Positions 17,701 through 53,800 of a stretch of 64,000 nucleotides of DNA are shown in pieces (position 1 is the first letter of the stretch; each line of letters starts with the position of its first letter). The stretch spans positions 31,763 through 95,762 of the forward strand of contig CAYLVM010000002.1 of NCBI GenBank assembly GCA_964387145.1. Direction: 5' to 3'. A program made the translations under genes and the position numbers. The stretch comes from an uncultured Acidimicrobiaceae bacterium. GTDB lineage: Bacteria; Actinomycetota; Acidimicrobiia; Spongiisociales; UBA5794. Below the pieces are notes generated by a model that was not told where the DNA came from, ran no database searches, and saw nothing but the letters and a program-made list of their open reading frames with translations.

Positions 17701-18435
17701 CTACCCCGCTTTGAGGACGGCGAGGGACTCAGGGAGCTGGACGTATCCCTCGGACTCGTAGAGAGCGAGGGCAGGGTCGTTGTCGCGTTGCGTGTTGAGG
17801 AGCAGCGCCTTGGATCCATGCCTTCGTGCACTGCGGGATGCGGCCCGCACGAGGCTTCGACCCATCCCTTGTCCTTGCCACACAGGATCGACGGCGACCC
17901 TCTGGAGATAGGAGATGGCGTGGCCGTATCCAACGACGGCGTACCCCGTGATACCGAGGTCACCGTCACGGATCACGAAGACGGATGATCGCGAGGTTGC
18001 CTGGGTGGACTCGACGAGAGATGTGCGGTCGAATCGCCAGAATGGGTCGAACGCTGCCTGATCGATCGAGAGCATCTGATCGATGTCGTAGTCATCGTTT
18101 CGCACGACAAGGTGGCGAGGGGCAGGAACGGGCGCTTCGAGTCCGAGACGCATGAGGGCGAGTTCGAGGAACTCGACGAACCCAGCAGCCTCCCACGGCT
18201 TCCGTGCGGAAGGTGCAAGAGGAGAGGAGAACACCGAGGGTGCCCCAAGGTGTGTGAGGCGTTGGACACAGGCATCGATGAAACCGGTTCCGCCCCTCAC
18301 GAGGCGCAGTGTGGCGTCCTCGACGGCGTCGTTCCATGGGCGAGCTTCGGCTCGTGCCCAACCGCGCCGAAGCGAGATGGGGCCCGGCCATACTCCTCTT
18401 TGAAATACACGATGTGGGGTGTCGGCTAACGCCAT
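17701..18435 (-). CDS. GNAT family N-acetyltransferase
   Basis: Acetyl-CoA binding motif RVAVDPVWQGQGMGRSLV; start chosen at MALADTP. Confidence 0.7.
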   Translation of the reverse strand: MALADTPHRVFQRGVWPGPISLRRGWARAEARPWNDAVEDATLRLVRGGTGFIDACVQRLTHLGAPSVFSSPLAPSARKPWEAAGFVEFLELALMRLGLEAPVPAPRHLVVRNDDYDIDQMLSIDQAAFDPFWRFDRTSLVESTQATSRSSVFVIRDGDLGITGYAVVGYGHAISYLQRVAVDPVWQGQGMGRSLVRAASRSARRHGSKALLLNTQRDNDPALALYESEGYVQLPESLAVLKAG

Positions 18436-18514
18436 GACCTCTCCCGGAGTCCTGCCACGCACTCCGTAATGTACCCCCGATCGCGACGTGCCCGGCGCAT
18501 GGCAGAATCGGACC

Positions 18515-19528
18515 ATGACGCTCCTCCTTGTTTCCCACGAACTCGGCCTAGCTCATCGCGTCCCTCGCGGGCACCCTGAGCGAAGGGAACGCCTCACCGC
18601 AACCTTGAATGGCCTGCACCGCTTGACGTGTGGTGTGGTGGATAGGGAGGCCCCCAGAGTCGATCGGCGGTTGCTCGAAGAGATTCACGACGCCTCGTAC
18701 ATCGAGGAGGTACGTCGGTTCTGTGAGGAGGGAGGGGGATCGTTCGACCCGGACACGTACGCCGTCCCTGCATCGTTTGCTGCTGCCCTCCACGCAGCGG
18801 GAGCAGGACCGTACGCCGTCGACGCCCTCATACGAGGCGAGGCGAAGACCGGGTTCGTCGCTGTCCGCCCCCCAGGCCATCACGCCGAGCGCCATCAGGC
18901 GATGGGTTTCTGCCTCTTCAACAACATCGCGGTGACCGCATCGTATCTGCGACGTGAGGGCCATCGGGTAGCGATCGTGGACTGGGATGTCCACCATGGC
19001 AACGGCACACAGAACTCGTTCTGGTTGGAACCCGACGTTCTCTACGTGTCCCTTCACGAGTTTCCCTTCTACCCGGGGACAGGGTGGTTGAGCGAGACCG
19101 GGGTAGGAGAGGGAGCGGGAGCCACCGTGAACATTCCACTCCCCGGCGGGACCTCGAGCAATGACTATCTGGCAGCATTCGCGCGGATCGTTGTTCCCGT
19201 TGTGCGACAGTTCGCGCCCGACTGGATACTGGTGAGCGCAGGCTACGACGCACACGTGTCAGATCCTCTTGGCGGTCTCTGCCTCGAATCGAGCGACTAT
19301 CGAGCGATGGCAGGGGCGCTCGCCGAGATCGTTCCCCCGCAACGGATCGTTGCCTTTCTCGAGGGCGGCTACGATCTCGATGCCCTTGCAACGTCCTCCC
19401 AAGCAACGGTCGAGGGGGTGCTCAACGGTGCGCAGCAGTTTCCGTGGCCGAGCGTCATCGATGGGTCGGCCGCCAGGATCATCGATCTTGTCGTGGAGGG
19501 TGTTGGACGCTACTGGGACCTCGACTAG
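18515..19528 (+). CDS. Histone deacetylase superfamily protein (AcuC/acetoin utilization / acetylpolyamine amidohydrolase-like)
   Basis: Arginase/deacetylase fold motifs VDWDVHHGNGTQ and SAGYDAH. Confidence 0.8.
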   Translation: MTLLLVSHELGLAHRVPRGHPERRERLTATLNGLHRLTCGVVDREAPRVDRRLLEEIHDASYIEEVRRFCEEGGGSFDPDTYAVPASFAAALHAAGAGPYAVDALIRGEAKTGFVAVRPPGHHAERHQAMGFCLFNNIAVTASYLRREGHRVAIVDWDVHHGNGTQNSFWLEPDVLYVSLHEFPFYPGTGWLSETGVGEGAGATVNIPLPGGTSSNDYLAAFARIVVPVVRQFAPDWILVSAGYDAHVSDPLGGLCLESSDYRAMAGALAEIVPPQRIVAFLEGGYDLDALATSSQATVEGVLNGAQQFPWPSVIDGSAARIIDLVVEGVGRYWDLD

Positions 19529-19598
19529 CGGGGACCCACACACGAGGAGAGAGCGATAGAGGTCAAGGGAGTTCGCGGACCGGCCGATACCTGTTCTG

Positions 19599-20711
19599 GT
19601 GAGTCGAACCGGAGGACACGTGCCAGACCAGATACCGACGCTTGGGGAACTCCTTGGAAAACTCGTGGAGATACACGGTTCCGACCTGCATCTCAAAGTG
19701 GGATCACCCCCTGCGTACCGGATCGACGGAGCGCTGCACCTCGCCGAACTTCCACCGCTCACCCCGGAACAAACCGAAGCCCTGCTCAGCGACCTCCTTC
19801 CGAGCCACCTTCAAGGGAGAGCATCTGAGACAGCGGACCTCGATTTCGCCTACGGCGAAGCGGGCCTCGGCCGGTTCCGTGTCAACAGCTACCGTCAGCG
19901 TGGTTCGATCAATCTCGTCGTTCGGTCTGTTGCCCCGGCCTCAACGGCCTTTCCCGACCTTGGACTCCCTGAAGGTGTCGTGAGAGCGTGTGACGAACGT
20001 GACGGGCTGATCCTCGTCACGGGTCCGACCGGTGCAGGAAAGACGACGACATGTGCAGCGATGATCGACCACATCAACGAGAGCCGTCGTGTGAACATCA
20101 TCACGATCGAGGACCCGATCGAAGTTCTCCACAGGGACAAGAGAGCGATCGTGTCACAGCGGGAGGTCGGCGTTGACACGCCCTCGTACGCCGAGGGGAT
20201 GGCATCGGTCATACGGCAGGATCCCGACGTCATCTACGTCGGCGAACTGCGTGACGCAGAGACGATGCAGGCTGCACTCATCGCGGCAGAGACGGGCCAC
20301 CTCGTGATCTCGACGATGTACACGATCGATGCAGTCGAGACTGTTCATCGAATCCTCGACAGCTTCCCCCCGTACCTCGAACGGAGGGTTCGTCAGATGC
20401 TCGGTACGACGCTTCGTGCCATCGTGTCCCAGCGGCTCATCCCCAAGATAGAGGGCCCCGGAAGGGTCCTTGCCGCCGAGTTGCTGTTCAACACCGAAGC
20501 CGTTCGTGAGCATCTCGTCGATGCAGACAAGATGCCAGAACTGTTCGAGACGATCGCCGAGGGGGCGTTCTACGGCATGAAGACGTTCGACCAGGCGATC
20601 ACCGAGAGGTATGAGGCGGGAGACATCTCGTTCTCCGATGCCCTCTCATTCGTCACCTCTCCGAGGGACTTCAAGCTGGCGACTGGAGTGGCGACCACAC
20701 CCGGCCTGTGA
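19599..20711 (+). CDS. pilT: Type IV pilus twitching-motility ATPase PilT family
   Basis: 370 aa; Walker A GPTGAGKTTT; PilT-specific sequence. Confidence 0.82.
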   Translation: MSRTGGHVPDQIPTLGELLGKLVEIHGSDLHLKVGSPPAYRIDGALHLAELPPLTPEQTEALLSDLLPSHLQGRASETADLDFAYGEAGLGRFRVNSYRQRGSINLVVRSVAPASTAFPDLGLPEGVVRACDERDGLILVTGPTGAGKTTTCAAMIDHINESRRVNIITIEDPIEVLHRDKRAIVSQREVGVDTPSYAEGMASVIRQDPDVIYVGELRDAETMQAALIAAETGHLVISTMYTIDAVETVHRILDSFPPYLERRVRQMLGTTLRAIVSQRLIPKIEGPGRVLAAELLFNTEAVREHLVDADKMPELFETIAEGAFYGMKTFDQAITERYEAGDISFSDALSFVTSPRDFKLATGVATTPGL

Positions 20712-20805
20712 GCTTCGCAACCCCGACACGACAACAGAGAGACCAGACAGACCCCTTCTGACACCTGACACCTGTTGTCTGTTGTCTGTTGTCTACTGTT
20801 CCCTC

Positions 20806-21399
20806 ATGCCAGACTTCACCTGCACACGCTGTGACGAGAGATTCTCGCTCGCGCCTGCTCTCCTCGATCGATTCCCTGGATGGGTCCCCAAGCTGTGCCT
20901 TGCGTGCAAGGATGAACGAGGTGCAGCCTCGCGGCCGTCGACCTCGAAACCGGTCTCTGCTGCCGACCCGTCGTCCGGCGTGTTCACCGACGGAAGCGCA
21001 GTTCCCAACCCGGGTCCTGGTGGGTGGGGAACTGTGTACGTCATCGACGACGAGATCGTTGCAGAGGCCTACGGCTACGGCGGAGAGACCACGAACAACC
21101 GTATGGAGTTGATGGCACTCATCAACGCCGTTGACCTCGTTCCTGTGGGAACACAAGTAACTGTGTACTCGGACTCGAACCTCGCTGTGCGCACCATCAA
21201 CGAGTGGGCAGCAGGATGGGAACGCCGCGGCTGGAAGCGCAAGACAGGCCCCGTCGAGAACCTCGATCTCGTCAAGGAGGCGTACGCCGCGTTCAGGGCG
21301 AGGCCTGAACTGTCACTCGAGTGGATACGGGCACACGTCGGGTACCGCTGGAACGAGTACGCAGACGAACTGGCCAACCGGGGAAGGATGGAGAGGTGA
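20806..21399 (+). CDS. rnhA: Ribonuclease HI with an N-terminal Cys-rich (zinc-ribbon-like) extension
   Basis: RNase H core TDGSAVPNPGPGGWG...TNNRMELMALINAV...YSDSNL..; N-terminal CTRCDE...CLACKDE. Confidence 0.8.
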   Translation: MPDFTCTRCDERFSLAPALLDRFPGWVPKLCLACKDERGAASRPSTSKPVSAADPSSGVFTDGSAVPNPGPGGWGTVYVIDDEIVAEAYGYGGETTNNRMELMALINAVDLVPVGTQVTVYSDSNLAVRTINEWAAGWERRGWKRKTGPVENLDLVKEAYAAFRARPELSLEWIRAHVGYRWNEYADELANRGRMER

Positions 21400-43859: not shown

Positions 43860-45548
43860 CTAACTCAGCCCAACAACGTTGCCATCTGCGTCGATGTCGA
43901 TCGAGTGGGCTGCAGGATGGAGGCCGAGCCCGGGCATGCGGTTGATCGAGCCCGTCAACGGAAGGACGAACCCGGCGCCGGCAACGAGCTGCACCTCACG
44001 CACCGGAAGCGTCCACCCCGTCGGGGCACCGAGCAACGCAGGGTTGTGACTGAAGGAGTACTGCGTCTTGGCCATACAGATCGGGAGATTGCCGTATCCG
44101 TGCGCCTCGTAGTCGGCGAGCTGACGTTTCGCCTTGATGTCGTACTCGACGCCATCTGCACCGTAGACCTTCGTGGCGATCGTCTCGATCTTTTCGGTGA
44201 GCGTCATGTCGGGCGTATAGAGGGGCGCAAAGTTCGATCCGTGCTCGGCAGCCTCTCGTACGGCCTCTGCAAGGGCAACCATGCCCTCTGCACCCCTGCT
44301 GAAGGGCTCGGCGATAGCCCACGCAGCGCCCTCCTCCTCGGCGATGGCACCGATCGCTGCATGCTCGGATGCGTGATCGGTCGGGAAGCTGTTGACGGCG
44401 ATGACCGGGATCACCCCGTGCTGGCGAATGTTGGCGATGTGCCTTCGCAGGTTCGCTGCTCCCGCCATGACGTCTTCGGGACTTTCGGCGACCATCTCTT
44501 CGGGAAGCGGCTTGCCTGCTTTGACCTGGAACTTCCCCGAGTTCAGCTTCAATGCGCGAACGGTTGCAACGATGACCGCGACATCGGGTGACATGCCCGA
44601 CGCTGCACACTTGAGATTGAAGAACTTCTCAGCACCGACATCGGACCCGAAGCCGGCCTCGGTGATGAGGTAGCTGCCGCTGCGGATTCCGACCTGGTCC
44701 GCAACGATGGACGAGTTTCCGTGCGCGATGTTGGCGAACGGTCCGGTGTGGACGAGCGCTGGTGTTCCCTCGAGGGTCTGCATGAGGTTCGGGTTGAGCG
44801 CATCCTTGAGAAGCACCGTCATCGCCCCTGCGCCCTTGATCTGCTCAGCGGTGACCGGGTTCTTGTGCCGGTCGTAGCCGATGACGATCCGACCCAGACG
44901 CTCGCGGAGATCCTGCAGGCTCGTTGCGAGACCGAGGACGGCCATCAGCTCAGAAGCTGCCGTGATATCGAAACCGCCCTCACGGGGGATGCCGTCGAGT
45001 GTCGTTCCGAGGCCGACCACGATGTTGCGCAGTGCCCGGTCGTTGACATCCATGACACGACGCCACGAAACGCGCTTGATGTTGATCGACAGCTGGTTGC
45101 CCTGGTAGATGTGGTTGTCGATCAGAGCGGCGAGGAGGTTGTTGGCTGCAGTCACAGCGTGGAAGTCACCGGTGAGGTGGAGGTTGAGTTCCTCCATCGG
45201 GACGAGCTGGGAGTATCCGCCGCCGGCGGCGCCACCCTTGATCCCGAACGTCGGGCCGAGGGAAGGCTGACGCAAGGTCAGGATCGCCTGCTCGTCGAGC
45301 AGCTTGAAGCCCTGGGCGAGGCCGACCGACACCGTGGTCTTACCTTCACCGAACGGCGTTGGATTCACCGCGGTCACCAGCACGTACTTGGCGCGAGGCT
45401 CCCCCATGTGCTCAAGAGCTTCGAGCTTGATCTTCGCGAGTCCGTGGCCACGTTGTTCGACGAACTCATCCGGAATGCCCATGTCCTCGGCAATGTCATG
45501 GATCGGGCGAAGTTCTACTGATCTGGCGATTTCTAGGTCGGTACGCAT
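43860..45548 (-). CDS. fhs: Formate--tetrahydrofolate ligase
   Basis: 562 aa; FTHFS family sequence (TPFGEGKTT). Confidence 0.95.
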   Translation of the reverse strand: MRTDLEIARSVELRPIHDIAEDMGIPDEFVEQRGHGLAKIKLEALEHMGEPRAKYVLVTAVNPTPFGEGKTTVSVGLAQGFKLLDEQAILTLRQPSLGPTFGIKGGAAGGGYSQLVPMEELNLHLTGDFHAVTAANNLLAALIDNHIYQGNQLSINIKRVSWRRVMDVNDRALRNIVVGLGTTLDGIPREGGFDITAASELMAVLGLATSLQDLRERLGRIVIGYDRHKNPVTAEQIKGAGAMTVLLKDALNPNLMQTLEGTPALVHTGPFANIAHGNSSIVADQVGIRSGSYLITEAGFGSDVGAEKFFNLKCAASGMSPDVAVIVATVRALKLNSGKFQVKAGKPLPEEMVAESPEDVMAGAANLRRHIANIRQHGVIPVIAVNSFPTDHASEHAAIGAIAEEEGAAWAIAEPFSRGAEGMVALAEAVREAAEHGSNFAPLYTPDMTLTEKIETIATKVYGADGVEYDIKAKRQLADYEAHGYGNLPICMAKTQYSFSHNPALLGAPTGWTLPVREVQLVAGAGFVLPLTGSINRMPGLGLHPAAHSIDIDADGNVVGLS

Positions 45549-45631: not shown

Positions 45632-46213
45632 ATGATCTCTCACACACTCGGTGTCGTACTAGCCGGTGGCAAGAGCCGTCGCATGGGAATCGACAAGGCT
45701 TCGATCGAGGTAGGTGGAACGTCGATGCTCGCGCTGGCCGTTGCAACCCTGTCGGGCCTGTTCGACGATGTCGTCGTCGCCGGGGGATCGGAGACTCCCC
45801 CGGGTTGTGTGCTGTTGGCCGACACACTCCCTGGAGCCGGTCCTCTTGCGGGCCTCGACGCTGCGTACGGCATTGCCCGAGACAGGGCCGTGTTCCTCAT
45901 GGCCCTCGACATGCCGTTCGTCGACGATGCGACCGTGCGCTCCATCGTCGAACCCACCGTTGATGCAATGGCCGCAAGAGTGCCTATCAGCGGGAACCGG
46001 CGCCATCCGCTGTGTGCCGTCTACGGAGCGAATCTCGGCCCACTCGTGACCGAGCGCCTTGTGAGGGAGGACCGCTCGATGGCGGCATTCATCGCCGGTA
46101 TCGACGGGGTCGAGTACATCAGGGTCGAGGAGCGACCCATGGTGAACGTGAACACCATCGAGGATCTCGAGGTAGCGCTCAGAGAATCCGGTCCGCCCCG
46201 CAGTACACGTTGA
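45632..46213 (+). CDS. mobA: Molybdenum cofactor guanylyltransferase
   Basis: 193 aa; GVVLAGGKSRRMG motif. Confidence 0.8.
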   Translation: MISHTLGVVLAGGKSRRMGIDKASIEVGGTSMLALAVATLSGLFDDVVVAGGSETPPGCVLLADTLPGAGPLAGLDAAYGIARDRAVFLMALDMPFVDDATVRSIVEPTVDAMAARVPISGNRRHPLCAVYGANLGPLVTERLVREDRSMAAFIAGIDGVEYIRVEERPMVNVNTIEDLEVALRESGPPRSTR

Positions 46214-47000
46214 AGCCACCATCGCGAACGAAACCGAGGACCGTCATGTTCAGTTCCTCGCCGAGGTCGACTGCCAGGTCGGATGCTCCCGACACCCCGC
46301 CGATCACCGGGATCCCTGCAACCGCTGCCTTCTGAACGATCTCGAAGCTGATCCGTCCCGACACGAAGAGGATGACGTGGTTGAGTGGCCACCGTGTCGT
46401 TGCCAGATGGCCGATGAGTTTGTCGACGGCGTTGTGTCTCCCGATGTCCTCGAATACGGCGATGAGCTCACCCGATGGTGAGAAAGCGGCGGCGGCGTGG
46501 ATGCTCCCCGTCGTATCGAAGGTCCGTTGCCGTTCTCGCATGGCACCGGACAGCGTCGAGATGGTCCCTGCGGGGATCATGGGCCCCGGTGCCATCGAAC
46601 GCGCCGCTACCCGCACTGCATCGATCGATGCCTTGCCACACACGCCGCACGACGACGACGTGAAGAAGTTCCTCCGGAACTGCTCGGGGTCGACCGTAAC
46701 TCCCTCGGCGAGCACCATGCGGTAGCGATCACCCTCAGCGGTTCCCTCGACTCGCTTGATCGAATCGACTTCGTGTGGGCCGAGAACGATCCCCTCGGTC
46801 AATGCGAATCCGAGACCGAGAACCTCGTCGTCACCCGGGGTGCGCATCAGCACTGCGATCGGGACGTCATGCAAACGGAACTCGACAGGCGATTCAGAGA
46901 CGAGGTGGTCCGCGGCACTTGTCGCTACACCATCGTGGTATCGAACGATCGGTCTACTCATGGGGTGATGTTCCGCTTGCTGCGACGCGGGAGCACGCAC
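46179..47000 (-). CDS. fdhD: Formate dehydrogenase accessory sulfurtransferase FdhD
   Basis: 273 aa; FdhD family sequence with the conserved SSCGVCG motif. Confidence 0.85.
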   Translation of the reverse strand: MRAPASQQAEHHPMSRPIVRYHDGVATSAADHLVSESPVEFRLHDVPIAVLMRTPGDDEVLGLGFALTEGIVLGPHEVDSIKRVEGTAEGDRYRMVLAEGVTVDPEQFRRNFFTSSSCGVCGKASIDAVRVAARSMAPGPMIPAGTISTLSGAMRERQRTFDTTGSIHAAAAFSPSGELIAVFEDIGRHNAVDKLIGHLATTRWPLNHVILFVSGRISFEIVQKAAVAGIPVIGGVSGASDLAVDLGEELNMTVLGFVRDGGFNVYCGADRIL

Positions 47001-47020: not shown

Positions 47021-47884
47021 CTACGCATCTTCACTCTGGACATAGGCGTAGCCGAAGCGGCCTTTGATGCAGAGGTGGCCACTGGTGACGTCGTGGTCGA
47101 GTGGCGACGTGACCTTGACGATGCGGTTGTCCTGGACATGCAGGTCGAGGTTGCAGCCGACACCGCAGTAGCTACACACCGTCCTTGCGACGTGTTGTGC
47201 AGACTCATCCCACGTCCCTGCCTCGCGCATGCGGTACTCGGAGGTGAACATGAGCGCACCCGTGGGACAGACGCCGACGCAGTTTCCGCAGTACACGCAC
47301 GCCGATTCGGGCAGCGTGATGTCGAACTCGGTGGTGATGGTCGCAGCGAGTCCTCGGCCCCCAACATCGATGGCGAAGGTGTTCTGTGCATCGGGACCAC
47401 ACGCCGCGACGCAGCGGAAGCACATGATGCACTTGTCGTAGTCCCGTATGTAGAGGTCGTCCTCGATCTTGACCTCGCGTCTCGGGCGGGCCCACGAACC
47501 CCACCGATCGGGGTCGACGCCATACCGTTCCATGAACCCTTTCGTCGTGTCCTCGACGAGGGACATGTCGACGGTCGATGCGAGCAGTTCGTAGACCGTC
47601 TTGCGGACGGCCTTCACTCTCGAGGATTCGGTCACAACTGCCATGCCGGGGGTGATCTCCCGGGAGCACGCAGGCACGAGGTTGCGCGAGCCTTCGACCT
47701 CAACGACACAGACACGGCACGAGTTGAACGGTGCAAGTGTCTCGATATAGCACAGGGTCGGCACGGTGACATCGATCGAAGCGCACGCCTCGAGGATCGT
47801 CGTCCCGGTAGATGCCGTGATCTGGCGACCGTCGATCGTGATCTCGATGAGCGATTCGGTGGCCTGGGTGGTCACGACGACCCC
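47021..47884 (-). CDS. Formate dehydrogenase Fe-S subunit: 2Fe-2S ferredoxin plus 2x[4Fe-4S] plus Mo-domain 4Fe-4S motif (NuoG N-terminal-like), without a molybdopterin domain
   Basis: C-terminus ends in CSYCGVGCNLDLHV...GHLCIKGRFGYAY, the N-terminal cluster motif of molybdopterin oxidoreductases; start placed at the VVVTTQATESLIEITIDGRQI GTG overlapping the upstream gene. Confidence 0.7.
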   Translation of the reverse strand, partial: GVVVTTQATESLIEITIDGRQITASTGTTILEACASIDVTVPTLCYIETLAPFNSCRVCVVEVEGSRNLVPACSREITPGMAVVTESSRVKAVRKTVYELLASTVDMSLVEDTTKGFMERYGVDPDRWGSWARPRREVKIEDDLYIRDYDKCIMCFRCVAACGPDAQNTFAIDVGGRGLAATITTEFDITLPESACVYCGNCVGVCPTGALMFTSEYRMREAGTWDESAQHVARTVCSYCGVGCNLDLHVQDNRIVKVTSPLDHDVTSGHLCIKGRFGYAYVQSEDA

Positions 47885-49680
47885 CCGATGATGCCGATCG
47901 CAAGCGCAGACTGCACAGCGGCGGACGCTGCCTGTCCGAGGCCACAGATCGAAGCGTCCCGCAGGACATGGTCGAGATCGCTGAGCAGTGTCAGCTCCGT
48001 ATCTACGTCCGTCGATCCCGTCCTGATCCGCAGAAGCGTCTCTTCCTGGCGGACCGTCCCTGCTCGGCACGGCACACAGACGCCACAGGACTCCTCGGCG
48101 AAGAAATGGGCGATCCGCGACACGATGTCGGGAAGGTCGGTATCGGTGTTGAAGACCAGTACGACACCCGAGCCGAGTCCGATGCCGTGTTCCCGGGTGT
48201 CCTCGAACGTCAGTGGCAGATCGAAGTCGGCCTCGGTGATGAACGCACCGGCTGCGCCCCCGATGAGGACGGCAGCCACCTCCCCGTCGACTCCCCCTGC
48301 GAGTTCGATCAACTCACCGGTGGTCGCCCCGAACGGCACCTCGTAGACCCCGGGGTCCTTGACGTTGCCTGATACACAGAACAGCTTTGGACCCTTGGAG
48401 TCCTCGGTTCCGATGGCGGAGAACGCTTCGCCACCGTCGAGAACGATGGTGGGGACGTTCATGAGCGACTCGACGTTGTTGACGAGTGTCGGGCACCCGA
48501 AGACACCTGCCTGGGTGGGGAAGGGTGGCTTCTGGCGTGGCTCGCCTCTGAAGCCTTCGATCGAGTTGAACAGGGCGGTCTCCTCGCCACAGATGTAGGC
48601 ACCCGCTCCCTTGCGGAGTTCGATGTCGAACGTGAACCCGCTTCCGGCGACGTCCTCGCCGAGGTACCCGGCTGCGCGAGCCTCATCGATCGCCTCGGCC
48701 AGGCGCGCATGTGCGATCGGATACTCGCCGCGGATGTAGATGTAGCCGCGACGTGCGCCGACGGCATACCCGGCGATCGTCAACGCCTCGATGAGACCGA
48801 ACGGATCCGTCTCCATCAGGACCCGGTCCTTGAAGGTGCCTGGCTCGCTCTCGTCGGCGTTGCAGATGACGAACTTGTCGCCTTCCTCTCCTGCGACCGC
48901 ATTCCACTTGATTCCTGCGGGGAACGCTGCACCGCCACGTCCGCGCAGACCACTCGTGGTGATCTCAGAGAGGATCTGCTCGGGGCCGATGGCGATCGAA
49001 TGAGAAAGGGCCGCGTATCCACCGTTCTTCTCGAAGGCTTCGAGAGACGTGGCCTGTCGGGACAGGAGTGTGGTGCCGGGGGTCGGGTCCGTCGGCTCAA
49101 CTATGGATGTGGGCTCGTCGATGGAGAGGATCTCGATGACCTGATCCACCGTGACGGGTGCGATGACGACATCGTCGCCGCCGGCAACCTGAACGAACGC
49201 TGCCGAGCCCTTCTCGCACTGCCCGAGACACGGTGAGTGTCTCCACATGCCTTCGTCGATCGTCTGTCCCGCGTCGCCGAAGCGTTGGGTGAGGTCAGCG
49301 AGGAGACCGTCGACACCTGTTGCCTTGCATGCAATGTCGTCGCACAGGTGGGCGACCCGCCTGGGTCGTTCATCGGTCGCGATGAGGTCGTAGAACGTCG
49401 CAACGCCGTACGCCTCTGCCGGGGATACGGGGATACGCTCGGAGATGTAGTTGAGGGCGCCGTGGCTGACCCACCCGACGTCACCCTGAACACCGTGGAG
49501 AGCAGGCAGGAGGAGGTGCCGGCGATCCTGGGATGCGCGGAACCCGCCATAGGCGACGTGATCGTCGACAGCGGATCGTTCCTCGGCTCCAGCCCACACC
49601 GAGTCTGGCTCACCGAGTACACGATCGACTGCCGCTCGTTCTTCGGCGGTTGGTGCATCGGGGGTGGTTCTGTAGTCCAT
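47872..49680 (-). CDS. NAD-dependent formate dehydrogenase diaphorase subunit, fused NuoE-like (2Fe-2S) plus NuoF-like (FMN/NADH/4Fe-4S)
   Basis: 602 aa; NuoE thioredoxin-like Cys pattern, then NuoF motifs (GRGGAAFPAG, ESCGVCVPCR). Confidence 0.85.
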   Translation of the reverse strand: MDYRTTPDAPTAEERAAVDRVLGEPDSVWAGAEERSAVDDHVAYGGFRASQDRRHLLLPALHGVQGDVGWVSHGALNYISERIPVSPAEAYGVATFYDLIATDERPRRVAHLCDDIACKATGVDGLLADLTQRFGDAGQTIDEGMWRHSPCLGQCEKGSAAFVQVAGGDDVVIAPVTVDQVIEILSIDEPTSIVEPTDPTPGTTLLSRQATSLEAFEKNGGYAALSHSIAIGPEQILSEITTSGLRGRGGAAFPAGIKWNAVAGEEGDKFVICNADESEPGTFKDRVLMETDPFGLIEALTIAGYAVGARRGYIYIRGEYPIAHARLAEAIDEARAAGYLGEDVAGSGFTFDIELRKGAGAYICGEETALFNSIEGFRGEPRQKPPFPTQAGVFGCPTLVNNVESLMNVPTIVLDGGEAFSAIGTEDSKGPKLFCVSGNVKDPGVYEVPFGATTGELIELAGGVDGEVAAVLIGGAAGAFITEADFDLPLTFEDTREHGIGLGSGVVLVFNTDTDLPDIVSRIAHFFAEESCGVCVPCRAGTVRQEETLLRIRTGSTDVDTELTLLSDLDHVLRDASICGLGQAASAAVQSALAIGIIGGSS

Positions 49681-49687
49681 GGTCGCC

Positions 49688-51574
49688 TCAGTTTGCCGTG
49701 AGCGGTTCGATCCGCACTGCGGTCGCCTTGAACTCTGCGGTCCCGGATTTGGGATCCCACGCGTCGAGCGTGAGGATGTTGACGTCTACGTCGTCGGGCG
49801 AGTGGATCGCCATGAAGACGAGGCCCTTGCGTAGTCCCGAACTGATCCGTACCGGGACGTCGATCGATCCCCGACGTGACGTGACCCTGACGACCTCACC
49901 TTCCTCGACTCGAAGCGCGGTTGCTTCTTGCGGTGATACGTCGATGACGGCACCGTGGCGGATCGGTGATCGGAAGCCGCCAGACTGGACGCCGGTGTTG
50001 TAGCCGTCGAGCCGCCTGCCCGTCGTGAGGCGGATCGGGAAGTCGTCATCGAGGGGATCGACGGGGGGTACCCAGTCGACCTTCGAGAACGCTGCAGGCT
50101 CGCGTGGCATGGGGTCTTCCCACAGCCAGGCGTGGAGGAACAGCGTCCCTGGATGGTCCTCGGATGGGCATGGCCATTGGAGGCCACCGAGGGTTTCGAG
50201 CCGCTCATACGTCATGCCGGTGTGCATCGGGCTCAGAGCCCGTAGCTCGTCCCAGATCTCTTCGGCGGAGCGATGTGGCCAGTCGTTGCCCAACTGTCGT
50301 GCCAACAGCGTGAGGATCTCGATGTCGTCCTTGGCGTCGGCCGGCGGTTCGAGTGCTTTGTGTACGCGCTGCACGCGCCGTTCGCTCGAGGTCACGGTTC
50401 CGTCGGTTTCTGCCCATCCGACCGCGGCCGGGAGCACGACGTCGGCCATCTCCGCTGTTTTCGTGAGGAAGATGTCCTGGACGACGAGATGGTCGAGTCC
50501 GGCGAGAAGGTCGATGGTGCGACCCGTATCGGCCTCAGATTGTGCCGGATTCTCTCCGAGGATGTACATGGCGGTGAGATCGCCGCTCTCCATGGCATCG
50601 AACATCTGGGTGACGTGCCAGCCGTTCTCTGACGGGATCGAAGTGCCCCACATCGACTCGAACTTCGAGCGGAGTTCGGGGTCGGTCACGTTCTGGAACC
50701 CGGGGAGCTTGTTGGGGAGGGCTCCCATGTCGCCACCGCCCTGGACGTTGTTCTGCCCGCGGATCGGCACGAGCCCCGAGCCGTAACGGCCGAGATGTCC
50801 GGTGAGAAGTGACAGGTTGATGAGGGCGAGCACGTTGTCGGTCGCGTTGTGATGCTCGGTGATACCCAGTGTCCAGCACAGTTGTGCAGTGCGTGCCTTT
50901 GCGTAGTCGTGGGCAAGGGAGCGGATCGCATCGGCGGGCACACCGGTGGTCGCCTCTGCATACTCGAGGGTGTAGGGCTCGACGTGGTCGGTGAACTCTT
51001 CGAAGCCGGAGGTGGAGTGCGCGACGAACTCGGTGTTGACGAGGCCTGCATGGATGATCTCACGTGCAACGGCGTTGGCGAGGGCGATGTCGGAGCCGGT
51101 GTCGATCCCGAGCCAGATATCTGCCCACTCTGCGGACTCTGAGCGACGTGGATCAACGGCGTACATCTTGGCTCCGTTGCGCATACCTTTGGCGAGATGG
51201 TGGAAGAAGATAGGGTGGGCATTACGCGCGTTGGACCCCCACAGGATGATGAGGTCCGTGGTCTCGATCTCTTCATAGGACGACGTTCCGCCGCCTGCTC
51301 CCAGGACTGCCGCCAGACCGGCGACGCTAGGAGCGTGTCAAGTTCGGTTGCAGCTGTCGACGTTGTTCGTGTGAAGCACCGTGCGTGCGAACTTCTGTGC
51401 CACGAAGTTCATCTCGTTCGTCGCCTTCGAACACGAGAACATGCCCGTAGCGTCGGGAGTGTTGCGTTGGAACCCGGCCGCTGCCCTCTCGAGGGCGACA
51501 TCCCAGCTTGCCTCGGTGAGCCGTCCGTCCTCGCGGACCATCGGCGTCGTCAGGCGTTCGTATCGTTTACCCAT
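49688..51574 (-). CDS. fdhA: Formate dehydrogenase molybdopterin catalytic subunit, predicted selenoprotein with in-frame UGA at 51338-51340 (complement)
   Basis: Continuous frame ...VDSCNRT-UGA-HAPSVAGLAAVLGAGG...; Sec aligns with the conserved Sec/Cys of formate dehydrogenases (E. coli FdhF ...RV-U-HGPSVAGL); RBS GGGAGGTG before ATG 51574. Confidence 0.7.
51311..51323 (-). promoter_or_regulatory. Candidate SECIS apical hairpin CGCC-GGUCU-GGCG, 18 nt 3' of the fdhA UGA
   Basis: Same loop (GGUCU, the Gly-Leu codons) and same UGA-to-loop distance as the E. coli fdhF SECIS. Confidence 0.5.
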
Positions 51575-51667: not shown

Positions 51668-52363
51668 TCAGAACAGGATCGCGATGGCGTCCCCGAGGAG
51701 CGACACACCGAAGACGAGCAACAGCACCGCCATAACGACGGAGTTGTTCTGGATGAGCCAATCCTTCGCATTCGAGAACGCGTCGTCGGCGCGCTCACCG
51801 ACGATGAGGTACCCGATCACCGGGATGGCCACCGTGCTGGCTGCGATCGCAATGAATATCAAGAGAGCGATCATCTCTTCGCTGAACGCCATACCGGCCC
51901 CGGCAATCGATACTGCAGCGCCTGCGGTCAGCAGGAGATTCTTCGGATTCACTGCGGACAGGAGGAAACCCATTCCGAGCGACTTACCGAGACCGAACTG
52001 ATCGATGGCCGCCATCCACTTCGGTGCCTCGGCCGTCTCGCCGGTGCCGGGCCGCTTCTGCCACGCCCCCCAGGCCACGGCGAACATTCCGAGACCGAGC
52101 AGACCTTTGATGATGCCCGTCGTGGTCGAGGGTTCGCCCTCGCTCGGCCCAAAGCCCGGGATCAAGAGGACGATCGTCCCGACGACCAGCAGACCGGCGA
52201 TCCAGCCGAACATGAACATCGGCCCGTTGGTCCTCGCTTTTGGAGTGAACAGCATCACGATCGCCGCAGCGATCGGTACGGGGCTCACCGCAACACCTAC
52301 CGCGAATGGAAGGATCTCACCGAACACGTCGCCCATGGCTACTCCCCTGATCGCGTTGGCCAC
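51668..52363 (-). CDS. GAP-family polytopic membrane protein (DUF2910-like)
   Basis: 231 aa; six hydrophobic segments. Confidence 0.45.
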   Translation of the reverse strand: MANAIRGVAMGDVFGEILPFAVGVAVSPVPIAAAIVMLFTPKARTNGPMFMFGWIAGLLVVGTIVLLIPGFGPSEGEPSTTTGIIKGLLGLGMFAVAWGAWQKRPGTGETAEAPKWMAAIDQFGLGKSLGMGFLLSAVNPKNLLLTAGAAVSIAGAGMAFSEEMIALLIFIAIAASTVAIPVIGYLIVGERADDAFSNAKDWLIQNNSVVMAVLLLVFGVSLLGDAIAILF

Positions 52364-52472: not shown

Positions 52473-53291
52473 CTAGAAGAAGAGCCTTTTGGCAGCGTCG
52501 GTGAAGATGGCGAGGACGAGGAACCAGGCTCCGACGAGGATCAGGATGCGGCCACCCCACCTTTTCACCGCCGGACCGGCCGTCTTGAACCGGCTGAGGG
52601 TCGATGCCTGTGCAAATGTGGCACCGAGAGCGGCCAGGAACATCAGGATCACGATCATCGCGGCAGCGACCGTGAACGTGAACACCGACGTCGCGACGCT
52701 TCCGGCGATGAGGGACTGTGCGGCCAGACCGGCCAGCAGCGGTCCCGTTCAGGAGAACCCCGCCGCCAGGTAGCCGAAACCGTACAGGACGTGGCTCGAG
52801 AAGCGGGTCTCGTCGCCGATCGCTGCGCGTCTGCGGTCGATGGGCTCGGCGATTCTCGTCATGGCCGAGAAGTGCAGATCGACGACGCGTAGCTGAACAA
52901 GACCCATGACGATCAGAACGATGCCGACCACGACTCGCAGGATCCTTCCCTGGGCCGAGTCGAAGGAGAACAGGCGGGCGATGGCACCACCACCGAGGGA
53001 GAGCAGGAGACCGAAACCCACGATGAAGGCAACGGCCCCGACAGATGCTCCGGTCGCGAATCGAAGGGTATCGCGCGCCCGATGCTCCGGCGATGTCGTT
53101 GCCCGGCGGGCGAGTGTGGTCAGGAGGAGAGGGAACGAACAGGGCGAGAAGAACGCGGCGATACCGACCGTCGCGGCGACCACAACGAGTCCAACGCCGG
53201 TCGCTCCGCCGACGTCGAAGGAGCGGAACAGCCGGAACCCGACGTAGCCGGCGAAGCCGACGACGAGCGTGATGATGACGAGGAGCGCCAT
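52473..53291 (-). CDS. CcdA/DsbD-family thiol-disulfide transporter homolog with in-frame UGA (complement 52749-52751) replacing the second conserved Cys; predicted selenoprotein
   Basis: Reads MALLVII...AAFFSPCSFPLL...YGFGYLAAGFS-UGA-TGPLLAGLAAQSLIAG...RWGGRILILVGAWFLVLA; both segments are in one frame; the UGA aligns with Cys of the CcdA TM4 motif (AAGWTPCIGPILG); GGCC-GGUCU-GGCC hairpin 18 nt downstream. Confidence 0.6.
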
Positions 53292-53372
53292 ACGCGTCCG
53301 CAGCCTGGACTGCTTCAACTCGTCTCTGTCGGTCGTCACGGTTCTCCTGTGGTGTGGTGTGACTACCCTAAA

Positions 53373-53392
53373 CCTTGAAGTCGACTTCAAGG
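53373..53392. promoter_or_regulatory. Perfect 20-bp palindrome CCTTGAAGTCGACTTCAAGG between divergent merR and ccdA-like genes (MerR-type operator candidate)
   Basis: Seen in sequence; resembles the SoxR box (CCTCAAGTTAACTTGAGG) in architecture. Confidence 0.5.
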
Positions 53393-53404
53393 TCAAGAGG
53401 GATC

Positions 53405-53800
53405 GTGCAGATAGGAGAACTCGCCGGGGCGAACACCGTATCGACCGCAACGGTGCGGTATTACGAGCAGATCGGGCTTCTCGATCCCCCGAAGCGGACG
53501 GCGTCGGGGTACCGGGACTACGACCAAGATGCTTCAGCGAGACTCGGCTTCATTCGGGCTGCCCAGGGAGCAGGCCTCAGCCTGGAGGAGATCCGCACGA
53601 TCCTCGAGATATCGAACGCCGGAGATGCCCCGTGCGGTCACGTTGCAGGGTTGATAGATGAAAAGGTGAAGACGATCGCTACGAAGATCGCAGCACTTCA
53701 GGTGGCGAAGGCCGATCTCGAGGCGCTCTCCGCTCGAGCCCGAACCCTCACCGGAACCCCCTGCCCCGAAGGCTCCATCTGCCACATCCTCGCCCCATAG
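53405..53800 (+). CDS. MerR family transcriptional regulator with C-terminal Cys/His cluster (metal-responsive type)
   Basis: MerR HTH (IGELAGANTVSTATVRYYEQIGLL), coiled-coil linker, C-terminal PCGH...PCPEGSICH. Confidence 0.8.
   Translation: MQIGELAGANTVSTATVRYYEQIGLLDPPKRTASGYRDYDQDASARLGFIRAAQGAGLSLEEIRTILEISNAGDAPCGHVAGLIDEKVKTIATKIAALQVAKADLEALSARARTLTGTPCPEGSICHILAP

Follow-up and report, generated by a model that had tools for sequence, protein, structure and literature searches.

The 64,000-nucleotide stretch of DNA analyzed here (the window) carries on its minus strand, from position 51574 to position 49688, a formate dehydrogenase (FDH) gene whose reading frame contains a UGA codon. 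We conclude, with a probability of roughly 0.9, that this gene encodes the catalytic subunit of a cytoplasmic FDH linked to NAD(P) (nicotinamide adenine dinucleotide or its phosphate), and that the molybdenum or tungsten atom of its predicted bis-molybdopterin guanine dinucleotide (bis-MGD) cofactor is bound by a selenocysteine (Sec) inserted at UGA codon 79. Sec-containing FDHs are the commonest selenoproteins of bacteria. In this respect the gene is of a known kind, its putative Sec insertion sequence (SECIS) is of the classical fdhF kind, and current understanding of Sec decoding is unchanged. More unusual are the mis-annotation of the gene throughout its clade, an alpha subunit that is split and permuted, and a neighboring gene for an apparent membrane selenoprotein that has the same SECIS module. 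As judged from these genes, the data support Sec decoding in a high-GC lineage of Acidimicrobiia and in many other uncultured aerobes.

The in-frame UGA codon and the active site

Two open reading frames (ORFs) of 98 amino acids (aa; 51634-51338) and 498 aa (51184-49688) occupy a common minus-strand frame, which is open from 51640 to 49688 and is interrupted only by the TGA at 51340-51338. The probable start of the gene is the ATG at 51574, with the sequence GGGAGG located six bases upstream, and from this start the TGA is codon 79. Reading through it yields a product of 78 aa, Sec79, and another 549 aa, or 628 codons in all (51574 to 49688). The original prediction for this region, made from the DNA letters and their ORFs, had proposed a single frame broken by this TGA alone, and inspection of the ORFs and the frame bears this out. 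Likewise, the peptide it quoted (...VDSCNRT-U-HAPSVAGLAAVLGAGGGTSSYEEIETTDLIILWGSNARNAHP...) and the RNA it quoted (UGA-CACGCUCCUAGCGUCGCC-GGUCU-GGCG) match the sequence exactly. The FDH gene itself ends with an ordinary UGA stop codon, as do six of the ten other neighboring genes checked, and therefore a reassignment of UGA in this organism is excluded.

In a search of PDB sequences, the FDH protein can be aligned along its entire length with the FdhF subunit of hydrogen-dependent CO2 reductase (7qv7_S, E = 1e-150). Further matches are found to Escherichia coli FdhH (1aa6_A, E = 2e-138), an F420-dependent FDH (9t1s_L), the FDH of Methanospirillum (7bkb_D), and alpha subunits of the FdsA type (6tg9_A, 9wxb_B, and 7e5z_A). 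In these alignments the UGA codon falls in the column that holds X (Sec) in 9t1s_L, Cys in 7qv7_S, and Sec140 in E. coli FdhH, and the codon that follows specifies the conserved histidine of the pair U79-H80. The arginine of the motif PIRGQNNVQG is conserved as well. Such an alignment could have refuted the earlier placement of the TGA at the Sec/Cys active-site position of FdhH/FdhF-type enzymes, and instead it agrees with that placement.

The domain content is also that of a molybdopterin enzyme (PF00384, Molybdopterin; PF01568, Molydop_binding). The score against TIGR01591 (Fdh-alpha), 657.4 bits, is slightly below the cut-off of 666.25 because model positions 1-50 are absent from this chain, which covers positions 51-672. 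The protein scores 163 bits against NF041513 (formate_DH_Act), for which the cut-off is 1400. In extent, the chain is equivalent to residues ~307-935 in alpha subunits of the FdsA type and to residues ~60-689 in E. coli FdhH. The original expectation of a complete FdhF-like catalytic subunit must therefore be corrected, since the N-terminal Molybdop_Fe4S4 domain is encoded elsewhere, at 47875-47021.

A homolog scan with one genome per species returned 455 relatives, of which the best 80 were taken, all of them metagenome-assembled genomes (MAGs). Most are Acidimicrobiia, the nearest being 84% identical, and the remainder are labeled Acidobacteriota, Gaiellales/Thermoleophilia, Nocardioidaceae, Spirochaetia, and further groups. 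Of the related loci, 81 extend across the site, and all 81 have TGA at the position of codon 79. When 79 of these Sec-form genes (62-100% aa identity) are aligned by codon, no other internal stop codon is seen in any of them. Pairwise identity averages 0.69 over residues 1-78, 0.84 over residues 80-130, and 0.69 over residues 131-628, and it is residues 80-130 that would be lost from the window protein if translation restarted at the first ATG. This pattern is unlike that of a pseudogene or a real gene split, and it indicates that both sides of the TGA are under purifying selection.

The only contigs found to carry the window's own proteins are of 12 kb and 5.7 kb and come from metagenome assemblies. 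In the protein database, the close homologs (greater than ~72% identity, among the matches listed) are all fragments of 489-570 aa that start after the TGA, and the annotation of the independent assembly GCA_006243085.1 (locus L001) divides the gene into products of 78 aa and 498 aa. Thus, the Sec-type clade is systematically mis-annotated. The source organism had been described beforehand as a high-GC actinobacterium, which holds at the level of the phylum (62% GC in the window; Actinomycetota) and can be refined to the class Acidimicrobiia.

A hairpin downstream of the UGA codon

The predicted SECIS hairpin spans positions 51334 to 51297 of the minus strand, or +7 to +44 when the U of the UGA codon is numbered 1. 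Its upper stem has six base pairs (bp), namely G16-C32, U17·G31, C18-G30, G19-C29, C20-G28, and C21-G27 (51325-51309). These enclose an apical GGUCU loop at +22 to +26 (51319-51315), which lies 19-23 nucleotides (nt) past the UGA. A 1x4 internal loop separates the upper stem from a lower stem of 8 bp (G7-C44 to G14-C37), and the whole forms an interrupted hairpin of 14 bp. The 4-bp stem with a GGUCU loop that had been drawn earlier was correct in its loop and in the innermost part of its stem, whereas the full stem comprises 6 + 8 bp. The folding check proposed along with it yields a hairpin of bacterial SECIS geometry. The published rule for such elements calls for a stem of 6-8 bp and a conserved loop G ~20 nt past the UGA (PMC4605307), and the window hairpin agrees, with an upper stem of 6 bp and loop nucleotides G22 and G23 at 19-20 nt. 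The 38-nt element has a minimum free energy (MFE) of -21.5 kcal/mol (z = -2.8; equaled by 0 of 200 shuffles), and the 17-nt upper hairpin alone has an MFE of -8.9 kcal/mol (z = -3.2).

An alignment of 77 distinct homologous sequences shows pairing in 99.8% of the cells of the upper helix and a conserved loop, in which the sole change noted is T24 to G in one sequence. Within the upper helix, C20 to U is tolerated opposite G28, G31 to A improves the pairing with U17, and uncommon double changes occur at pairs 18/30, 19/29, and 20/28. Pairing of the lower helix is general among the homologs only in its five outer pairs. Pair 9/42 joins the synonymous third positions of an Ala codon (GCN) and a Gly codon (GGN), and it covaries through all four Watson-Crick types (UA, CG, GC, and AU, in addition to UG), although it is unpaired in 17 of the 77 sequences.

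The peptide HAPSVAGLA, which the hairpin encodes, is itself conserved, and therefore selection on the RNA must be separated from selection on the protein by examining synonymous sites and Cys-form genes. The 79 aligned Sec-form genes contain 272 four-fold-degenerate sites at which the amino acid is conserved, with a mean third-position entropy of 1.55 bits. Only codons 84, 86, 87, and 88 fall below 0.5 bit, and all four are at or below 0.1 bit (Val GTC in 78/79, Gly GGT in 78/79, Leu CTG in 79/79, and Ala GCG in 74/75, respectively). These frozen codons coincide exactly with the upper stem and loop, and GGT is an unfavored glycine codon in these GC-rich genomes.

The control is provided by cultured actinomycetes, which carry full-length homologs of 633-661 aa at 63-66% identity with Cys at the site in question (CNRT-C-HAPSVAGL). 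Six were compared, from Thermopolyspora flexuosa, Streptomyces samsunensis, Saccharopolyspora antimicrobica, Marinactinospora thermotolerans, Kutzneria buriramensis, and an Actinomadura sp. Their SVAGL codons include GTG or GTC for Val (GTG in four of six), GCC, GCG, or GCT for Ala, GGC, GGG, or GGA for Gly, and CTC, CTG, or TTG for Leu. Although the SVAGL peptide is identical, none of the six genes uses GGT for its Gly, and none has GGT-CTG. Since the Cys forms vary freely in the same peptide, the freezing of codons is specific to TGA-carrying genes. This is what is expected of a SECIS and is not what protein constraint would lead one to expect. The comparison of the two sets supports the identification of the hairpin as a SECIS that is under selection at the RNA level only in genes that carry TGA.

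The original prediction had also likened this element to that of E. coli fdhF, where GGUCUG likewise forms Gly-Leu codons, and a direct comparison with the fdhF sequence upholds the likeness. The fetched gene reads TGA CAC GGC CCA TCG GTT GCA GGT CTG CAC. Thus, as in the window gene, UGA is followed by CAC, and GGUCUG (+22 to +27) encodes Gly-Leu in the same register and forms the apical part of the hairpin. At the level of DNA the two are far apart, and a blastn search of E. coli genomes with the window region gave no match, the similarity being too low. The E. coli fdhF loop is a 4-nt GGUC closed by an A-U pair, with U17 bulged. The window hairpin differs in having a 5-nt GGUCU loop closed by a C-G pair, and in pairing U17 with G31 or A31.

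By analogy with the E. coli and Moorella systems, the mRNA 3′ of the UGA codon would be folded into the hairpin as the ribosome arrives, with its GGUCU loop 19-23 nt past the codon. The complex of SelB, GTP, and Sec-tRNA(Sec) would then bind the apical loop, such that Sec is inserted and termination is avoided.

Selenocysteine machinery and alternative explanations

Several observations weigh against assigning Sec to codon 79. Neither selA, selB, selD, nor a tRNA-Sec gene was found in the 64-kb window with ARAGORN, Rfam, or tblastn. Specifically, ARAGORN reports no tRNA of any kind in the window, and tblastn with E. coli SelA, SelB, and SelD as queries finds no match there. Furthermore, Rfam reports no SECIS in the window at the gathering threshold. 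A permissive scan aligns SECIS_3 (RF01989) to positions 51282-51343, matching UGA to UGA with a similar consensus (UGACaCGgcCC...GCcAGUCUgGC), but with 15.6 bits the match falls far short of the gathering value of 63, and the element is therefore not a member of SECIS_3 by the Rfam criterion. Finally, the full 61-nt stretch, which is GC-rich, has a z-score of only -1.4 relative to shuffles, such that the folding signal emerges only from the isolated 38-nt element.

Components of the Sec machinery are seen at the level of the lineage. The same SelA, SelB, and SelD queries match, among the related loci, only L075, from a Gaiellales MAG, where selA and selB (18247-21041, minus strand) lie 8 kb downstream of a Sec-FDH operon. 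Both exceed the cut-offs of their models (selA, TIGR00474, 511 bits versus 268; selB, TIGR00475, 352 bits versus 242). A tRNA-Sec gene was not found upstream of this selA in the ~840 bases fetched, and six related loci yield neither SECIS nor tRNA-Sec matches in Rfam at the gathering threshold. A 95-nt candidate in locus L082 (5830-5924, minus strand), which ARAGORN lists as 'tRNA-???' with a two-base anticodon, matches neither the tRNA nor the tRNA-Sec family of Rfam and is probably spurious. A protein-database search with the L075 SelA retrieves only Gaiellales-type proteins among its best 120 matches, and so provides no link to the Acidimicrobiia lineage. Within the class Acidimicrobiia, selA, selB, selC, and selD are reported from all 84 complete genomes of Actinomarina (bioRxiv 10.64898/2026.04.03.716425). 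The doubt that remains about Sec at codon 79 arises because sel genes are seen only at this level of lineage, in L075 and Actinomarina.

If Sec is not inserted, what else could the UGA codon be doing? It might be a true stop that leaves a pseudogene, or two products, one of 78 aa and one of about 500-540 aa, each translated independently. Gene callers do split the gene (78 + 498 aa in L001), the close homologs in the database are fragments of 489-570 aa, and the window lacks visible Sec machinery. Nevertheless, we regard a true stop as very improbable, given that all 81 loci have kept the TGA, with purifying selection on both of its flanks. Residues 80-130, which would then be missing from the window protein, are better conserved than any other part (0.84), and no restart codon is conserved: V90 is GTC in the window and GTG in some relatives, and the first ATG in the window is codon 131. 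With a split at this point, the metal ligand would also be lost and parted from His80, and the hairpin-specific synonymous constraint would be left unexplained. Downstream hairpins can stimulate stop-codon read-through in general, and the codon could instead be read by a near-cognate or suppressor tRNA that inserts Cys, Trp, or Arg, with the hairpin as a generic stimulator. The detection of Sec machinery at the lineage level, rather than in the window, also leaves room for this explanation. Against it, the sequence and spacing of the loop are those of the SelB-binding element of E. coli fdhF, the site is that of the Sec/Cys ligand, and in L075 selA-selB lie near the homologous operon. Moreover, had Cys been sufficient for the lineage, TGC or TGT would be expected, as is found in the cultured actinomycetes. 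Thus, read-through without Sec strikes us as quite improbable.

The two other explanations concern the hairpin and the DNA sequence themselves. Conservation of the hairpin could be a by-product of the conserved HAPSVAGLA peptide combined with GC-rich codon bias. The peptide is kept even in E. coli and in Cys-type enzymes, and shuffle controls on related sequences can overstate structure. However, the six Cys-type genes vary at the very third positions that are frozen in TGA-type genes and have no GGT there, and it is this non-preferred codon that 78 of 79 TGA-type genes retain, within the only frozen sites among the 272. This Cys-form codon control leads us to reject the by-product explanation as exceedingly improbable. 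Similarly rejected is a sequencing or assembly error that turned TGC or TGT into TGA, since L001, an independent assembly, is identical across the site and 80 other loci also have TGA; its chance is negligible. We therefore retain Sec insertion at codon 79 as the preferred explanation. Accepting it has practical consequences, in that the gene is to be annotated as a single selenoprotein, and the clade to which it belongs is systematically truncated in the public protein collection. In addition, the alignments yield a SECIS consensus that is well supported and suited to searches of these genomes.

Neighboring genes and comparison with known systems

A second gene with an in-frame TGA lies near the FDH gene. 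This candidate selenoprotein gene (52473-53339, minus strand) encodes a polytopic DsbD/CcdA-like membrane protein with weak matches to known families (DsbD_TM, E = 0.025; ArsG family, 5.6e-6). Its first motif is FFSPCSFPLL, and the TGA (52751-52749) lies in the second, ...GFS-U-TGPLLAGLAA.... The hairpin that follows, CUGGCC-GGUCU-GGCCGC, places its loop at +22 to +26 (52730-52726), the same spacing as in the FDH gene, and both the TGA and the hairpin are kept in L003, L005, and L006. The earlier proposal that the FDH gene anchors a Sec prediction for the CcdA-like gene gains from the finding that the CcdA-like TGA is followed, at the same distance, by the same GCC-GGUCU-GGC hairpin. Indeed, CCGGTCTGG occurs only twice in the window, each time 16 nt after one of these two TGA codons. 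The pattern TGA-N16-CCGGTCTGG is expected 0.04 times in the window, and 0 of 100 shuffles reach the two occurrences observed. A scan of 1.4 Mb of loci for the SECIS pattern recovers 81 FDH sites and four CcdA-like sites, plus three in implausible frames. The occurrence of one decoding signal in two unrelated genes is a strong argument, at the level of sequence, that the organism decodes Sec. A literature search for a Sec-containing CcdA-like protein found no description of one.

A broader generalization is possible, though we hold it to be doubtful. The FDH and CcdA-like genes may share one SECIS module, GCC-GGUCU-GGC at +19 to +29 (peptide A-G-L-A), frozen throughout a clade of uncultured aerobes from several phyla and with the general pattern TGA-N16-CCGGUCUGG. 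If true, then searching for this pattern in open frames would recover an unrecognized selenoproteome in Acidimicrobiia, Acidobacteriota, and their relatives. It would include a membrane thiol/selenol family for which no description was found, and public annotations now truncate such genes.

Two further genes adjoin this pair. A SfLAP/LysE-type membrane protein gene (51668-52336, minus strand; PF11139, E = 2e-44) lies between the CcdA-like and FDH genes and is present also in L001 and L005. Divergent from the CcdA-like gene is a MerR-family regulator gene of the metal-sensing type (53375-53800, plus strand), which scores 82-93 bits with CadR/ZntR/MerR/CueR models, all below their cut-offs. This arrangement hints at a metal- or redox-responsive unit.

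Downstream of the catalytic gene lie the genes for the other subunits of the FDH. A fusion of NuoE and NuoF (47872-49680, minus strand; 602 aa; PF01257, PF01512, PF10531, and PF10589) forms the predicted diaphorase subunit that binds flavin mononucleotide (FMN) and NAD(H). It matches 7e5z_B over almost its full extent (query residues 53-592), as well as 6vw7_B and 6tg9_B, and is the equivalent of FdsG plus FdsB or of Methylobacterium extorquens Fdh1B. The next gene (47021-47875, minus strand) has a GTG start that overlaps the upstream stop codon and encodes an iron-sulfur (Fe-S) subunit of 284 aa with a 2Fe-2S domain, two 4Fe-4S clusters, and a Molybdop_Fe4S4 domain (PF13510, PF12838, and PF04879). 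This protein matches residues 25-307 of 9wxb_B and 6tg9_A, and its C-terminus matches TIGR01591 model positions 1-52 with 55 bits. By these matches, the predicted Fe-S subunit represents the N-terminal third of an FdsA-type alpha subunit, detached from the rest of the chain. The alpha chain is cut at approximately residue 307 of FdsA, the NuoE-NuoF gene separates its two halves, which stand in reversed order, and the 4Fe-4S cluster nearest the pterin is thus on a separate polypeptide from the catalytic chain.

The order catalytic subunit, NuoE-NuoF, Fe-S subunit is found in every related locus of sufficient length and in the six cultured actinomycetes (loci L003 to L088), and therefore this split architecture is widespread. 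In two related loci the NuoE-NuoF and Fe-S genes are on the opposite strand. Such genes regularly receive annotations such as 'NAD-dependent formate dehydrogenase catalytic subunit', and no paper on the architecture emerged from a literature search for the split, permuted FDH operon.

Genes for cofactor maturation and one-carbon metabolism complete the neighborhood. FdhD, a sulfurtransferase and chaperone for FDH maturation, is encoded at 46179-46961 (minus strand; PF02634, E = 2e-64), and a MobA-like molybdenum cofactor guanylyltransferase for MGD synthesis is encoded at 45632-46213 (plus strand; PF12804), where it is syntenic in many related loci. The gene for formate-tetrahydrofolate ligase (Fhs; 43860-45548, minus strand) is recognized through PF01268 in the L001 gene calls, and is a syntenic neighbor in Acidimicrobiia loci at 78-90% identity (L007, L013, L014, L016, L019, L020, L022, and others). 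Ino1 is encoded further beyond Fhs in the neighborhoods of Sec-type operons.

From homology, the catalytic chain would assemble with the Fe-S subunit, which would place its 4Fe-4S cluster next to the pterin, and with the NuoE-NuoF flavoprotein. Formate would be oxidized to CO2, its electrons passing to molybdenum or tungsten, through the Fe-S chain to FMN, and on to NAD+; we infer both this acceptor and this direction of the reaction from the homologous enzymes. FdhD and MobA would mature the cofactor. The adjacent Fhs gene suggests that formate may be supplied by tetrahydrofolate-linked one-carbon oxidation via Fhs, as homology and synteny would have it.

The domain content and PDB matches of the three subunit genes identify the predicted enzyme as an NAD-linked FDH of the FdsABG/Fdh1AB type, with its alpha subunit split at approximately residue 307 and the halves permuted. 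FdsABG of Rhodobacter capsulatus (6tg9) and Cupriavidus necator (6vw7) and Fdh1AB of M. extorquens (7e5z/7vw6) have the same inventory of cofactors and domains: a NuoG-like Fe-S module, a Mo/W-pterin module, NuoE, and NuoF. Fdh1B is a NuoE-NuoF fusion, as in the window, and FdhD is encoded alongside these enzymes too. However, their alpha subunit is a single chain of ~960-990 aa rather than the product of two permuted genes, and the active site of 7e5z and 6tg9 carries Cys where the window enzyme would carry Sec.

Two selenoprotein FDHs resemble the window enzyme in other ways. E. coli FdhH (PDB 1aa6) is also a Mo-bis-MGD enzyme and has Sec-His in the same alignment column, but it has the N-terminal 4Fe-4S domain on the same chain, and it feeds a hydrogenase rather than an NAD-linked flavoprotein. 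The mycobacterial Sec-FDH of the FdoG/FdhA type has a SECIS (PMC13449736), and is like the window gene in being actinobacterial, in having a stem-loop SECIS directly after the UGA, and in having been mis-split by annotation because UGA is a common stop codon. Its subunit, of the FDH-O/N type and ~1060 aa in length, nevertheless belongs to a separate FDH clade.

Also comparable are the Cys-type split operons of T. flexuosa, S. samsunensis, Saccharopolyspora, Marinactinospora, Kutzneria, and Actinomadura. These have the identical order of catalytic, NuoE-NuoF, and Fe-S genes (and FdhD), and encode proteins of 63-66% identity in which the peptide CNRT-x-HAPSVAGL is the same as that of the window, with TGC or TGT instead of TGA and without the GGU-CUG hairpin. 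They are often located beside genes for oxalate catabolism rather than beside Fhs, which suggests a different source of formate. The Cys-type operons of L085, L087, and L088 adjoin genes for a thiamine pyrophosphate enzyme, a coenzyme A-transferase family III enzyme, and an acyl-coenzyme A synthetase. The same split NAD-type FDH in Sec and Cys forms provides a natural matched set with which to learn what selenium buys in an oxygen-exposed enzyme.

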